Assembly: GCA_048941015.1 (NCBI GenBank)
Contig: JBHLNZ010000064.1
Coordinates: 1-17,838 of the forward strand
Origin: Promethearchaeota archaeon
GTDB lineage: Archaea > Asgardarchaeota > Lokiarchaeia > Sigyniarchaeales > SOKP01
DNA length: 17,838 nt
Reading direction: 5' to 3'
Shown: positions 1 through 3,256 of the stretch, in pieces
Numbering within the stretch: the first letter of the stretch is position 1
Layout: every line of letters begins with the position of its first letter
Program-made: the position numbers and the translations under genes
The notes under the pieces: model-generated
The model's database searches: none
What the model was told of the DNA's origin: nothing
The model's input: the letters and a program-made list of their open reading frames with translations, nothing else

Positions 1-184
1 GGAAGCTACTGCTGTAGGTAACATTTTAATCCAAGCTCTTGCTCTGGGAGAAATCGAAAATATTAAGGAATTGAGATCTATTGTTCAAAAATCTTTTCAA
101 TTAAGGGAGTACCTTCCAGAAAAAGTTAAAAAATGGAATGAAGCATATAATCTTTTTTTAGAAAAAACTTCAAAAAGTATCTAA
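1..184 (+). CDS. 3' end of FGGY-family carbohydrate kinase (rhamnulokinase-like), partial
   Basis: Frame starting at base 2 reads EATAVGNILIQALALGEIENIKELRSIVQKSFQLREYLP...SKSI, stop TAA at 182-184. The EATAxGNxxxQxxAxGE motif is typical of rhamnulokinase C-termini. Not in the ORF track because the 5' end is outside the window. Confidence 0.8.
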   Translation, partial: EATAVGNILIQALALGEIENIKELRSIVQKSFQLREYLPEKVKKWNEAYNLFLEKTSKSI

Positions 185-215
185 AAATTATCAAAATAGT
201 AATAAAAAAATCAGA

Positions 216-461
216 TTATTTTTCCCATGCTCTCATTACCATATGGGTATTTGAGGAAGAGATGCCTTTAATCAAATCGATTTTATTCGCAAAAATTTCG
301 AACAATTCCTCTGGAGTATCTACTTCGATTTCTGCTAATATATCATAATCTCCAGTCAAGGACATAACTTTTTTAATCTGAGGAATCTGTTTTAACTCTT
401 CAATTACAGGATTGATTACACTAATTCCTAATTTAAATAAACTAATTGCTTTAATGGTCAT
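216..461 (-). CDS. Stand-alone Lrp/AsnC ligand-binding (RAM) domain protein, no HTH
   Basis: 81 aa with beta-alpha-beta-beta-alpha-beta pattern and the LTGDYDIL motif, then 'IDLIKGISSSNT' (cf. I..I.GV..T.T). No N-terminal helix-turn-helix. Confidence 0.88.
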   Translation of the reverse strand: MTIKAISLFKLGISVINPVIEELKQIPQIKKVMSLTGDYDILAEIEVDTPEELFEIFANKIDLIKGISSSNTHMVMRAWEK

Positions 462-480
462 ATAGAATCATTTATTTATT

Positions 481-1800
481 TTATGTAGGTAATTTTTCTG
501 TTTTGTTAATAAAAAGTATTTCTATATTTTTAATCTCATCAATTGGTCTTAATCTATTATTCACAAGATAATACAAATCTCGAATGGAATTTGTTTTTAC
601 GTTTATGAGTAAATCATATGTTCCAATTAGAGCATATATCGAAGTTATTCCATAATACCTTAAAATTCTAAGAATAGTTGTTTTAATATTTTCGCTTTTA
701 ACATTAATTAAGAGATATGCTTTAACCAAATTTTTTACTTCATGAGCATAACGAAATATAATGGTTATAAGTAACAAGAAGATTAGAATAACTAATAATT
801 CCAATGGAAAAAATTCATTTATTAAAAAAACGGCGAATAAAATAGAGCCTAAAGGGTCGATAAGATTCAATATACTGTTCCATTGACTGTATGTTAAATT
901 TTCTGATTTCCAATTTACATTAGCAGTAAATACAAGAACATAAGGAATGATTGTAGAAAAAATTATCAAATAAATTATTTCCCATCTTCCTCCGATTGTA
1001 AAAAACTCTATTAATTGGTTAAAAAACATAATTGATTCTGTTCTCAATTCTGGAGAAAAAGAGAATGTAGTAGTTATCCATATAAACGGAATCATTGAGA
1101 GGATACCAAGAATAAATGAAACTCCCATTTTTATAAAAAGACGAGGAATTTTATAATACTTATTAACGTTTATATTTTTAGCTTCTTTCTTTGAATATGC
1201 ATCTCTATCGATGCTGATATATAAAAAGGCAGTTGTGATGCTATTTAAAATCAAATAAATAAAACTGCCGAAATTAATCGGATGTCCTTGTAAAATTTGG
1301 CCTAATATTGCGGCATAAAGTAAAATAATTATAGAAAATATAAGCATGATAATGTAAAGGACCTTAAATATATCAAATTTCTCAAAATTTACTCCTTTTT
1401 CATACAACGCAATTAATATAATTGTAAGTAAAGAACTAGCCATAGCAAAGGTTACAGAAGTAGTTTTAAGCATTAAGAAAAAGAAAATGATATGTAAAAC
1501 TATCCCTATAAAGCCTATTAACCAATAGTAAAAAATATTTCTAACATGATAGAATCGCCTATTACGATGAAAAATATTTTTGATTAGTAAACTAATAGAA
1601 ATTTTATGATTTCGAGTAAATTTATTATTATATAGTCCTAGAGTAATTCCTAAGATAAATAAAAAAGTACCAGCCATTAAAAATCTAAGAAAAATTACCA
1701 TTATAATTGAAACTTCTAGAAATAAACCAGATACTACGACTGGAATAAAACTCCATAACAAGTTAGCAATAATAATGTTAAATATAAGTTTATTTCGCAT
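481..1800 (-). CDS. EamA/DMT-like multi-pass membrane protein fused to a C-terminal Lrp/AsnC (RAM) domain
   Basis: About 10 hydrophobic segments. N-terminal 'ANLLWS...IFLRFL' and later 'IIFSTIIPY', 'LNLIDPLGSILFAVFLINE' resemble EamA repeats. The last ~82 aa (VKAYLLINVK...ALIGTYDLLINVK...LRPIDEIKNIE) match the RAM pattern. Confidence 0.8.
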   Translation of the reverse strand: MRNKLIFNIIIANLLWSFIPVVVSGLFLEVSIIMVIFLRFLMAGTFLFILGITLGLYNNKFTRNHKISISLLIKNIFHRNRRFYHVRNIFYYWLIGFIGIVLHIIFFFLMLKTTSVTFAMASSLLTIILIALYEKGVNFEKFDIFKVLYIIMLIFSIIILLYAAILGQILQGHPINFGSFIYLILNSITTAFLYISIDRDAYSKKEAKNINVNKYYKIPRLFIKMGVSFILGILSMIPFIWITTTFSFSPELRTESIMFFNQLIEFFTIGGRWEIIYLIIFSTIIPYVLVFTANVNWKSENLTYSQWNSILNLIDPLGSILFAVFLINEFFPLELLVILIFLLLITIIFRYAHEVKNLVKAYLLINVKSENIKTTILRILRYYGITSIYALIGTYDLLINVKTNSIRDLYYLVNNRLRPIDEIKNIEILFINKTEKLPT

Positions 1801-1996
1801 GAGAAGTTAACACTTTATTTCATAAATCTTAGTTATACTATTCTAGATTTTAAATAAAATGGAAATAATAAATTTTGTCAGTTTAGCTTATTTCAATTAC
1901 CCATTTTATTCCCTAATTATGATTTTAAAGTAAATAATTAAAGTTTCAGTGCATACTATGACTTATAATTAATTTAAAAATTTAATAGGAAAACTT

Positions 1997-3256
1997 ATGC
2001 CAAGTTCTAAAGAATTTATTGAAATGGATCTGGAATATTGTGCTCATAATTATCATCCTATACCTGTAGTTATTTCAAAAGCTAAAGGTGTTTGGGTATA
2101 TGATCCTGAAGGAAACAAGTATCTTGATTGCTTATCTGCCTACTCAAGTCAAAATACAGGACATTGTCATCCTGAAATTATAAAGGCATTAAAAGAGCAA
2201 GCTGATAAAGTAACTCTTACATCTAGAGCGTTTCATAATGATTTAATGGGTCCCTTCTTGAAAAAATTATGTGAAGTTGTTGGTCCTCATGTTAATGACC
2301 CTAATAATTCAGGAATTATGAGTATTCCGATGAATACAGGAACAGAGGCAGTCGAAACAGGACTTAAAGTAGCACGAGCATGGGGGTATATAAAGAAGAA
2401 GATACCAAAGGGAGAAGCTCATATTATCGCTTGTAGAGACAACTTCCATGGCAGATCAATAACAATAGTCGGAATAAGTACAGATATATCCGCTGTTCGA
2501 TATTATGGTAACTTTTCTCCCTATACACCAGGATTCAGTATAATTCCCTACGGAGATTCCAATGAACTTGAAAATATAATTCTGGAAATAGGACCAGAAA
2601 AAATTGCTGGCTTTATCTTTGAACCAATTCAAGGGGAAGCTGGTGTAAAGGTTCCTCCAGAGGGATTTATTAGAAAAGCAAGAGATATTTGTACAAAGTA
2701 TAATGTTCTAATGATTGCAGATGAAATTCAGACTGGTTTTGGAAGAACGGGCGCATTATTTGCATGTGATCATGAAGATGCAAAACCAGATATGCTTCTA
2801 CTTGGTAAAGCGCTTGGTGGAGGGGTATATCCTGTTTCAGCTGTTGTTACAAATAGAGAGGTTATTGGACCAGATGTAATAAAACCTGGGACTCATGGTA
2901 GTACCTTTGGAGGAAATCCTCTTGCTTCAGCAGTTGCCATGAAGTCATTAGATATCCATATAGATGACCATCTTGCGGAAAGAGCTAAAGAATTTGGAGC
3001 TTACTTTATGAATGGCCTTAAAAAAATCGCAGAAAAAGAAACAATTGTCCCAATAAAGGAAGTTCGAGGTAAAGGTTTGTTAATGGCAATTGAATTTGAA
3101 ACAGATGCTAGGCATATTGTTGAAATGCTAAAAGATAATGGTATTTTAGCTAAAGACACACACTCAACAACTATTAGATTCGCGCCACCCTTAATCGTTA
3201 CAAAAGATGAAATTGATTGGGCATTGAAGATTATTGAAAAAGTTCTTGTAAAGTAA
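1997..3256 (+). CDS. rocD: Ornithine--oxo-acid aminotransferase (class III PLP)
   Basis: AHNYHPIPVV, YLDCLSAYS, LTLTSRAF-like 'VTLTSRAFHND', EPIQGEAG, DEIQTGFGRTG, LGKALGGG (PLP Lys), PGTHGSTFGGNPL, LAKDTH..IRFAPPL. Confidence 0.95.
   Translation: MPSSKEFIEMDLEYCAHNYHPIPVVISKAKGVWVYDPEGNKYLDCLSAYSSQNTGHCHPEIIKALKEQADKVTLTSRAFHNDLMGPFLKKLCEVVGPHVNDPNNSGIMSIPMNTGTEAVETGLKVARAWGYIKKKIPKGEAHIIACRDNFHGRSITIVGISTDISAVRYYGNFSPYTPGFSIIPYGDSNELENIILEIGPEKIAGFIFEPIQGEAGVKVPPEGFIRKARDICTKYNVLMIADEIQTGFGRTGALFACDHEDAKPDMLLLGKALGGGVYPVSAVVTNREVIGPDVIKPGTHGSTFGGNPLASAVAMKSLDIHIDDHLAERAKEFGAYFMNGLKKIAEKETIVPIKEVRGKGLLMAIEFETDARHIVEMLKDNGILAKDTHSTTIRFAPPLIVTKDEIDWALKIIEKVLVK

Follow-up and report, generated by a model that had tools for sequence, protein, structure and literature searches.

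Why should a membrane carrier end in the ligand-binding RAM domain of the Lrp/AsnC transcriptional regulators, and why should a second, free-standing RAM protein be encoded directly behind it? This question is raised by two genes of a Promethearchaeota/Hodarchaeota-type Asgard archaeon, located on a 17.8-kb contig of a ∼3.6-Mb genome bin; the whole contig (17,838 nt) is referred to below as the window. The first gene (window 481–1800, minus strand) is an open reading frame (ORF) for a 439-residue (aa) fusion of an EamA-like transporter of the DMT superfamily to a C-terminal RAM domain, and the second (window 216–461, minus strand) encodes an 81-aa RAM protein without a helix-turn-helix (HTH). 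We propose that the two genes encode a DMT secondary transporter with its own cytoplasmic sensor, assembled from the tethered and the free RAM domain, and assign this explanation a probability of roughly 55%. It builds on the conservation of the gene pair, on the sequence and modelled fold of both RAM domains, and on a bacterial homologue in which a free-type RAM domain has become part of the transporter chain. An earlier note, made from the letters of the window, had described both ORFs, and its coordinates, protein lengths and 19-nt spacing were exact.

The fusion and the free RAM gene form a conserved pair

Database searches returned at least 244 proteins matching the fusion as full-length homologues with the same domain layout, which is therefore not a chance product. 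The best 120 matches were 434–464 aa long and 53–87% identical to the window protein over nearly its full length, except for a partial sequence and the entry of the window protein itself. Their source names comprised Hod-, Thor-, Hermod-, Heimdall- and Lokiarchaeota, and public annotations label these proteins either 'EamA family transporter' or 'Lrp/AsnC ligand binding domain-containing protein'. Within the phylum, the transporter was found in 83 of 400 genomes (74 of 134 in the window's own family, with a patchy distribution within genera), and full-length members with 26–31% identity occurred in three further families. It is single-copy in the window's genome. Searching 1.84 billion representative proteins with a family profile gave only 121 hits, the full-length ones extending into the RAM region, and recovered no ordinary EamA proteins; two weak hits (P0202 and P0213) were RAM-less exceptions. 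We therefore regard the family as a small, divergent DMT clade that nearly always carries a RAM tail. In four related genomes (G250, G270, G231 and G145), the transporter match contained one in-frame stop (TAA or TAG), and these could be pseudogenes or assembly errors.

A free RAM-only gene of 77–86 aa was located 3′ of the fusion, on the same strand, in 43 of 43 genomes with downstream sequence. It also adjoined the fusion in three metagenomic or bacterial loci, the pair persisting to identities of 25–31%, and was kept in a Spirochaetota bacterium and another distant member. One candidate exception (locus L040 of genome G130) was rejected: masked bases were the cause, and an 83-aa RAM ORF is present. 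Across 55 gene pairs, the gap between the two genes ranged from 4 to 70 nt (median 20). In the window, 19 nt (462–480, minus strand) separate the fusion's stop codon (481–483) from the free RAM gene, and this short gap suggests that the two genes are co-transcribed. Identities to the window proteins were 70–94% for the free RAM, 53–87% for the transporter and 44–90% for the tethered RAM, which makes the free RAM the best conserved of the three. Two free RAM genes in tandem, an A-type ending in EWEK and a B-type ending in HW or RW, occur in four genomes from a single Asgard family and on a metagenomic contig (L041, L042, L043, L045 and L055); the window's clade has a single, A-like gene. The earlier note had asked whether the architecture recurs across genomes and whether relatives keep the pair; the architecture recurs widely, and the pair was conserved in every evaluable relative.

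The membrane domain resembles DMT carriers and faces its RAM domain to the cytoplasm

Residues 1–349 of the fusion (window 754–1800, minus strand) make up a membrane domain with ten transmembrane (TM) helices, delineated by AlphaFold2, structural alignment with VIA-align, Pfam and the positive-inside rule. The AlphaFold2 model, based on an alignment of 30 homologues (A1), had a predicted local distance difference test score (pLDDT) of 77 and a predicted template modelling score (pTM) of 0.71. Its 21 best PDB matches by VIA-align were all DMT transporters (Z 15–20.5, 270–302 residues aligned); these alignments spanned model residues 1 to ∼355 and included PfCRT, SLC35B1, Vrg4, the CMP-sialic acid transporter (CST), LicB, TPT and YddG. 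Every Foldseek E-value for the full-length model was above 1e-3, and given these weak values the fold was assigned from the VIA Z-scores and coverage. The Pfam EamA model (PF00892) matched residues 6–161, that is, repeat 1 alone, with 26.3 bits at a cut-off of 28.2, and three relatives exceeded this cut-off (P0132, 31.2 bits; P0134, 29.0 bits; P0202, 34.5 bits). Judged from the model, the membrane domain belongs to the DMT fold, with its ten TM helices arranged as two inverted five-helix repeats.

Over the 30 homologues, the mean number of lysines plus arginines was 8.2, 3.0 and 6.1 in loops 2–3, 4–5 and 6–7, versus 0–1.8 in the opposite loops. The N-terminus was also rich in these residues, and loops 1–2, 3–4, 5–6, 7–8 and 9–10 were poor in them or acidic. 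This positive-inside pattern therefore indicates a 10-TM carrier with both termini, and with them the RAM domain, in the cytoplasm. On the same face lie two family-specific insertions, in loop 2–3 (residues 58–90, very basic) and loop 6–7 (199–222), and the model has an extracellular helix at residues 250–270. TM10 (helix 333–356) enters strand β1 of the RAM domain (359–367) via just two non-regular residues. The connector (residues 350–357, window 730–753, minus strand), seen in both alignment and model as a cytoplasmic extension of TM10, follows the pattern R-Y-x-H-E-x-x-N, of which R350, Y351, H353, E354 and N357 were invariant in the 30 aligned sequences. In distant members the motif is present with substitutions, with R, Y and E mostly retained (alignments A4 and A5). 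The junction between TM10 and the RAM domain would thus seem to be a rigid mechanical link.

The two RAM domains differ in their ligand residues

The tethered RAM domain (residues 358–439, window 484–729, minus strand) was identified by Pfam, fold match and family alignments. AsnC_trans_reg (PF01037) matched residues 365–431 of the fusion with 30.1 bits (cut-off 25), rising to 34.3 bits for the isolated tail, and the free protein, likewise placed by Pfam and family alignment, contains a single such domain (51.8 bits, same cut-off). Neither protein matched an HTH family in Pfam or NCBIfam, and NCBIfam regulator models aligned to both through their RAM halves only, far under cut-off. Because the HTH is missing, neither protein is by its sequence an Lrp/AsnC regulator. 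The fusion tail (359–431) was modelled as β-α-β-β-α-β and superimposed on the stand-alone RAM protein DM1 (2e1a) with Z 12.4 and a root-mean-square deviation (rmsd) of 1.4 Å over 74 of 75 residues. The best PDB sequence matches of the free protein were the RAM proteins TTHA0845, FL11 and DM1, together with PHS023 and STS042, and with 81 aa and one PF01037 domain it fits the class of stand-alone RAM proteins (∼75–85 aa). In Pfam it gave RAM families only, and its likeness to P-II proteins is confined to function. The RAM/ferredoxin-like fold of the tail and the HTH-less, RAM-only nature of the small protein had both been predicted from the letters, and both predictions held.

Which residues of these domains could bind a ligand? 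In the structure of Grp with glutamine, the amino group of the ligand binds D102 in the G-x-x-D loop, and its carboxylate contacts T132 and T134, which belong to a subunit in the neighbouring dimer; the two threonines are described as highly conserved across all known Lrp/AsnC proteins (PMC2504300). The tethered RAM has the motif G-T-Y-D-L-L at residues 393–398, of which G393, D396 and L397 were invariant in the 30 homologues; G and D were retained in distant members, with one acidic substitution. At the T-x-T positions, it has I426 and I428, as placed by three independent alignments (to DM1, STS042 and AsnC). Among the tethered RAMs examined, these positions were never threonine or serine and always hydrophobic or aromatic; a possible exception is the divergent first RAM domain of the Spirochaetota member, which was not reliably aligned there, since MAFFT put tethered RAMs onto the second RAM domain of that protein (P0247). 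The free RAM retains T36-G37-D38-Y39-D40 and S70-N71-T72-H73. Among 27 free RAM sequences, which span archaeal and bacterial members at ∼35% identity, G37 was invariant, Y39 and D40 were nearly so, and position 72 was threonine or serine in 27 of 27, inside an N-[TS]-H motif. Of the canonical ligand residues, the free RAM thus has both sets (G-x-Y-D and [ST]-x-[TS]) and the tethered RAM the G-x-x-D half only.

The loss of T-x-T from the tethered domain, a motif otherwise highly conserved in the Lrp/AsnC family (PMC2504300), could also mean that the RAM pair senses no ligand at all and serves purely as a module for assembly, stability or oligomerisation. Indeed, several archaeal RAM proteins show no response to amino acids (PMC2995911). 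Conservation of G37, Y39, D40 and the hydroxyl at position 72 in the free RAM fits selection on a canonical ligand site, however, and G393 and D396 of the tethered domain are likewise conserved, so that we consider a structural role on its own unlikely.

Indirect evidence that the tethered and free RAM domains pair

In a maximum-likelihood tree, 16 of 17 tethered RAMs fell on one side (support 94/71) and the free RAMs opposite, with parallel internal topologies; one long-branch sequence was unplaced. This pattern points to an ancient duplication, after which the two lineages were inherited together. The Spirochaetota protein P0247 (541 aa) goes further, in that its DMT domain is followed by a first RAM domain, a linker of ∼27 residues and a second RAM domain, and then by a separate 86-aa RAM gene. 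RAM1 of this protein grouped with the tethered RAMs (97/90), RAM2 was nested among the A-type free RAMs of the two-partner systems (97/94), and the separate gene grouped with the B-type (92/91). The locus (L053:6001-7897, on a contig of a Spirochaetota metagenome-assembled genome) lies among genes for a glycoside hydrolase, a sulfatase and a sugar-binding protein, and this bacterial member of an otherwise archaeal family was probably acquired by horizontal transfer.

These data also bear on the idea that the tethered RAM acts as a transceptor, capturing or releasing free RAM or full-length Lrp regulators depending on whether ligand is bound or on the state of transport, in which case the output would be transcriptional and transport would be ungated. 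Such sequestration has precedents, as the RAM-only protein DM1 hetero-assembles with full-length FL11 in vitro (PMC2995911) and AmtB holds GlnK at the membrane (PMC10710835), and partners would be at hand in the form of about a dozen more RAM-containing ORFs in the genome, mostly of full-length Lrp size (142–197 aa). Yet a free RAM gene invariably accompanies the transporter gene, and the tree of the free RAM is parallel to that of the tethered RAM, unlike what would be expected of a general Lrp partner; the A-type free RAM of the Spirochaetota member is covalently fused and so cannot shuttle; and an Lrp regulator gene was not a conserved neighbour in the loci examined. We therefore consider such a signalling role unlikely.

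The two domains have opposite net charges. In the window, the last 82 residues of the fusion contain 12 K/R versus 7 D/E, and the free protein 9 K/R versus 12 D/E, exactly as counted in the earlier note. Across the family, the tethered RAM had a mean net charge of +4.5 (1 of 16 negative) and the free RAM one of −3.25 (19 of 20 negative).

To model both domains in one chain, we used loci in which the free RAM gene is in frame with the fusion, reading the single stop between them as glycine; there were seven such loci, of which six were used. The alignment (A5) combined these six paired read-through rows with unpaired tethered-only and free-only rows, and the construct modelled was that of the closest relative (L010), whose proteins are 87% and 94% identical to those of the window. 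The best AlphaFold2 model had a pLDDT of 86.2 and a pTM of 0.75 (range of five models, pLDDT 82.5–86.2), with low confidence in the N-terminal stub and the linker only. Its best PDB match was NirDL, a single-chain double-RAM protein, with Z 17.7 and an rmsd of 2.6 Å over 161 residues across both domains; single-domain matches had Z ∼10, and the free domain fitted DM1 with an rmsd of 0.8 Å over 75 residues. Since the NirDL match extends over both domains, the two RAMs were modelled as a canonical Lrp-type dimer.

That the top structural match is an enzyme invites another explanation, namely that the RAM pair has a catalytic or other non-regulatory role and might chemically modify cargo at the membrane, by analogy with the siroheme decarboxylases NirDL/AhbAB or with a stand-alone RAM protein of Pyrococcus furiosus reported to have hydrolytic activity (cited in PMC2995911). 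The NirDL match, however, reflects, at 14% identity, a geometry common to Lrp-type dimers, sequence searches put both domains with ligand-binding RAMs (DM1, FL11, AsnC and LysM models), and haem-pathway genes were absent from the window and close loci. We consider a catalytic role very improbable.

Taken together, the bacterial fusion, the parallel phylogenies, the opposite charges, the differing sets of ligand residues and the canonical dimer of the AlphaFold model lend strong indirect support to physical pairing of the tethered and the free RAM, the heteromer that the earlier note had proposed. Hetero-assembly of RAM proteins also has a precedent in the FL11–DM1 hetero-octamer (PMC2995911). 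A separate observation concerns P0229 (424 aa, from an ENA contig), a different 10-TM protein that matched the family profile through its C-terminal RAM only; in its locus, a RAM-only gene (83 aa) lies 38 nt upstream, and a gene for a GNAT acetyltransferase lies downstream. Pairing of a membrane-bound with a free RAM therefore recurs outside the family studied here.

Genomic context and candidate substrate

The fusion gene is separated by an AT-rich divergent intergenic region of 196 nt (window 1801–1996), presumably a promoter region common to both sides, from a class-III aminotransferase gene (1997–3256, plus strand; Aminotran_3, 409 bits) that resembles ornithine aminotransferase (OAT) and lies outside the module. 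This divergent arrangement was found again in relatives. Further window neighbours encode carbamate kinase, aldehyde dehydrogenase, ornithine carbamoyltransferase, proline-dehydrogenase-like flavoproteins and aldehyde:ferredoxin oxidoreductase. The same aminotransferase recurs in close relatives, with carbamate kinase or arginase to one side and genes for lysine/ornithine aminomutases to the opposite side, and it lay within 1.5 kb (77–93% identity) in 17 of 29 close loci. Among genomes of the window's genus, transporter and aminotransferase go together: both were present in 23 and absent from 10, with the transporter alone in 4 and the aminotransferase alone in 5. In genus g12, the aminotransferase accompanied the transporter in 14 of 17 cases (two more were cut at a contig end and one was not evaluable); the converse fails. 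All of these counts come from related genomes and are hence not independent.

Distant members have other neighbours, including genes for 2-oxoacid:ferredoxin oxidoreductase, HdrA/MvhD-like proteins, methylmalonyl-CoA mutase, glycosidases, a ClC channel, FGGY kinases and galactokinases; FGGY kinase genes lie beside the pair in L045 and L055. Ornithine or arginine was therefore rejected as the substrate of the family as a whole: the link to the OAT-like gene is limited to genera g1, g12 and a few others, and fails in g5, g6, g11 and the distant members examined. Of the ligand set suggested in the earlier note (Arg, Orn, Cit and Pro), what stands is the presence of such neighbours in the window's clade, and what does not is their conservation outside it. 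For this clade only, the neighbouring genes make one of the basic amino acids Arg, Orn and Lys the likeliest cargo or ligand, a tentative assignment to which we give somewhat less than an even chance.

Other features of the window and its genome were recorded as well. The G+C content is 24–26% over the transporter/free-RAM region (window 1–2000) versus 30–38% in the remaining contig, which may merely reflect a membrane protein rich in Ile, Leu, Phe, Asn and Lys. At the contig start, a gene fragment for 60 C-terminal residues (window 2–184, plus strand) is convergent with the free RAM gene; it had no Pfam match, so that a resemblance to the C-terminus of FGGY sugar kinases was unconfirmed and an FGGY kinase as a recurrent neighbour of the pair was not upheld. 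The genome's only other stand-alone RAM gene (L007:1465-1716, plus strand, contig C77; 83 aa, PF01037 58.9 bits) faces the gene of an MFS transporter (L007:1772-3034, minus strand) in convergent orientation across a 55-nt gap, and a GNAT acetyltransferase gene is nearby. On contig C115, a gene for a 410-aa protein (L008:1252-2484, plus strand) combines a RAM domain, a TBP domain (PF00352, 73 bits, residues 152–231), a winged HTH and another RAM domain, giving an Lrp-TBP-Lrp fusion that could link metabolite sensing to the basal transcription machinery.

A candidate ligand-gated DMT carrier

How could such a module work? On the explanation that we favour, that of a regulated transporter, the tethered and the free RAM would form a canonical Lrp-type dimer on the cytoplasmic face, to which the free subunit would contribute the complete set of residues binding an amino-acid backbone and the tethered subunit the G-x-x-D half. 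An amino acid or related metabolite from the cytoplasm, once bound, would then alter the RAM assembly, as Lrp proteins bind ligands at dimer–dimer interfaces and shift in conformation or oligomeric state (PMC2995911). The heterodimer might be reshaped against the conserved, family-specific loops 2–3 and 6–7; alternatively, heterodimers, and thus transporters, might associate through contacts such as those between the dimers of Lrp octamers. In either case, the rigid connector would relay the change to TM10, turning transport on or off. The outcome could be that uptake is shut down by feedback (trans-inhibition), as in MetNI or ModBC, or that export is activated, as a protein-level counterpart of Lrp-controlled EamA/LysE exporters such as PA2577/PA2576. 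What the data show are the folds, the cytoplasmic location of the RAM domain, the conservation of the pair, the bacterial fusion and the pattern of ligand residues; pairing, with its strong indirect support, ligand binding, its coupling to transport, the direction of transport and the substrate are parts of the scheme that we infer.

A broader form of the proposal is that the family is a class of ligand-gated DMT carriers defined by an obligate heteromeric RAM sensor, with one tethered and one or two free subunits, and old enough for several lineages of Asgard archaea, and at least one bacterium, to have it in common; we give this form slightly less than an even chance. The geometry of Lrp assemblies offers a reason for the second subunit. 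In the crystal symmetry of Grp, the two-fold axis that relates the two subunits within a dimer runs at right angles to the four-fold (ring) axis of the octamer (PMC2504300). Because of this orientation, only a tethered–free dimer would put all tethers on one face of a ring lying flat under the membrane, which would explain the constant need for a free partner. An RCK-like ring under the transporter, the analogy drawn in the earlier note, is conceivable as one form of the assembly.

Several points weigh against the regulated-transporter explanation. The membrane domain itself matches the EamA model below cut-off and in one repeat. The two-RAM model speaks for compatibility with a heterodimer and not for a preference over tethered–tethered or free–free dimers; AlphaFold may put any two RAM domains into the canonical dimer, the linker was artificial (a seven-residue read-through), and the paired depth was six rows. 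The basic charge of the tethered domain could stem simply from its position beside the membrane. Ligand sites of Lrp proteins lie between dimers, so that a lone heterodimer may bind no ligand, and the archaeal RAM proteins without an amino-acid response (PMC2995911) show that such a domain need not respond. As for the substrate, the transporter is common in genera g5, g6 and g11, where the aminotransferase is rare or absent, and the neighbours outside the window's clade belong to sugar, 2-oxoacid or other metabolism, so the assignment is weak.

Comparison with known systems

By Pfam and fold, both RAM domains belong to the same domain family as the Lrp/AsnC (feast/famine) assemblies and stand-alone RAM proteins FL11 and DM1 of P. 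horikoshii, Grp and STS042 of S. tokodaii and AsnC of E. coli, and the free protein is a typical stand-alone RAM of the 75–85-aa class with canonical ligand residues. Unlike these assemblies, the module has no HTH or DNA-binding partner, one of its RAMs is joined to a 10-TM transporter and lacks T-x-T, and its tethered and free forms are separate, co-inherited lineages. NirDL (4ch7) and AhbA-AhbB likewise combine two different RAM domains in one pseudo-dimer; NirDL, however, is a soluble enzyme with HTH-like domains and no membrane domain, at 14% identity to the module.

Tethered and soluble copies of one ligand-binding domain under a membrane protein are well established for the RCK ring of MthK-type channels. 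The RCK domain has a Rossmann-type fold and sits on an ion channel, and its soluble copy is translated from a start site inside the channel gene itself. Here, in contrast, the two copies come from two long-separated genes, have a ferredoxin-like fold and serve a carrier, and a ring is unproven.

Closest in genetic layout are GlnK-AmtB and SbtB-SbtA, conserved gene pairs in which a small metabolite sensor directly targets the transporter of the neighbouring gene (PMC10710835). These sensors are PII trimers of another family that plug the transporter with a loop, whereas in the module one half of the sensor is covalently attached and the partner would complete the dimer. In MetNI (through its C2 domain) and ModBC, C-terminal cytoplasmic domains bind the transported substrate and shut transport (PMC10710835). 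Both are ABC primary transporters with homodimeric domains on the ATPase, and the module differs as a secondary DMT carrier with a heteromeric RAM sensor. Direct control by sensor domains is thus known for channels and ABC importers (RCK, CBS, PII and MetNI C2), and a 2023 review of transporter regulation names neither DMT nor Lrp/RAM (PMC10710835). Full-text searches of the open-access literature found no description of an EamA-RAM or other transporter-RAM fusion, in agreement with the earlier note, which knew of no characterised example.

The DMT superfamily is very large and includes amino-acid exporters as well as the eukaryotic SLC35 nucleotide-sugar transporters. If the broader form of our proposal is true, this superfamily would gain, in the RAM sensor, the first description of a cytoplasmic allosteric domain, and the free subunit of the sensor would have the first defined cellular role of a stand-alone RAM protein; a conserved, linked membrane partner would give at least one lineage of these proteins a concrete job. 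The module may also help to explain how amino-acid-fermenting Asgard archaea meter the uptake or efflux of amino acids.

A RAM sensor controlling a DMT transporter is, in itself, familiar from gene pairs of Lrp/AsnC regulators with EamA, LysE or RhtB transporters, as exemplified by PA2577-PA2576 of Pseudomonas aeruginosa (PMC8707732). There, control is transcriptional and acts via the HTH, whereas fusion of the RAM to the transporter implies post-translational control. The module could thus be seen as the partnership of Lrp regulator and EamA transporter collapsed from the transcriptional to the protein level, and it would join a known kind, the allosterically regulated transporters, with a different sensor fold, a different transporter class and a split tethered/free design.

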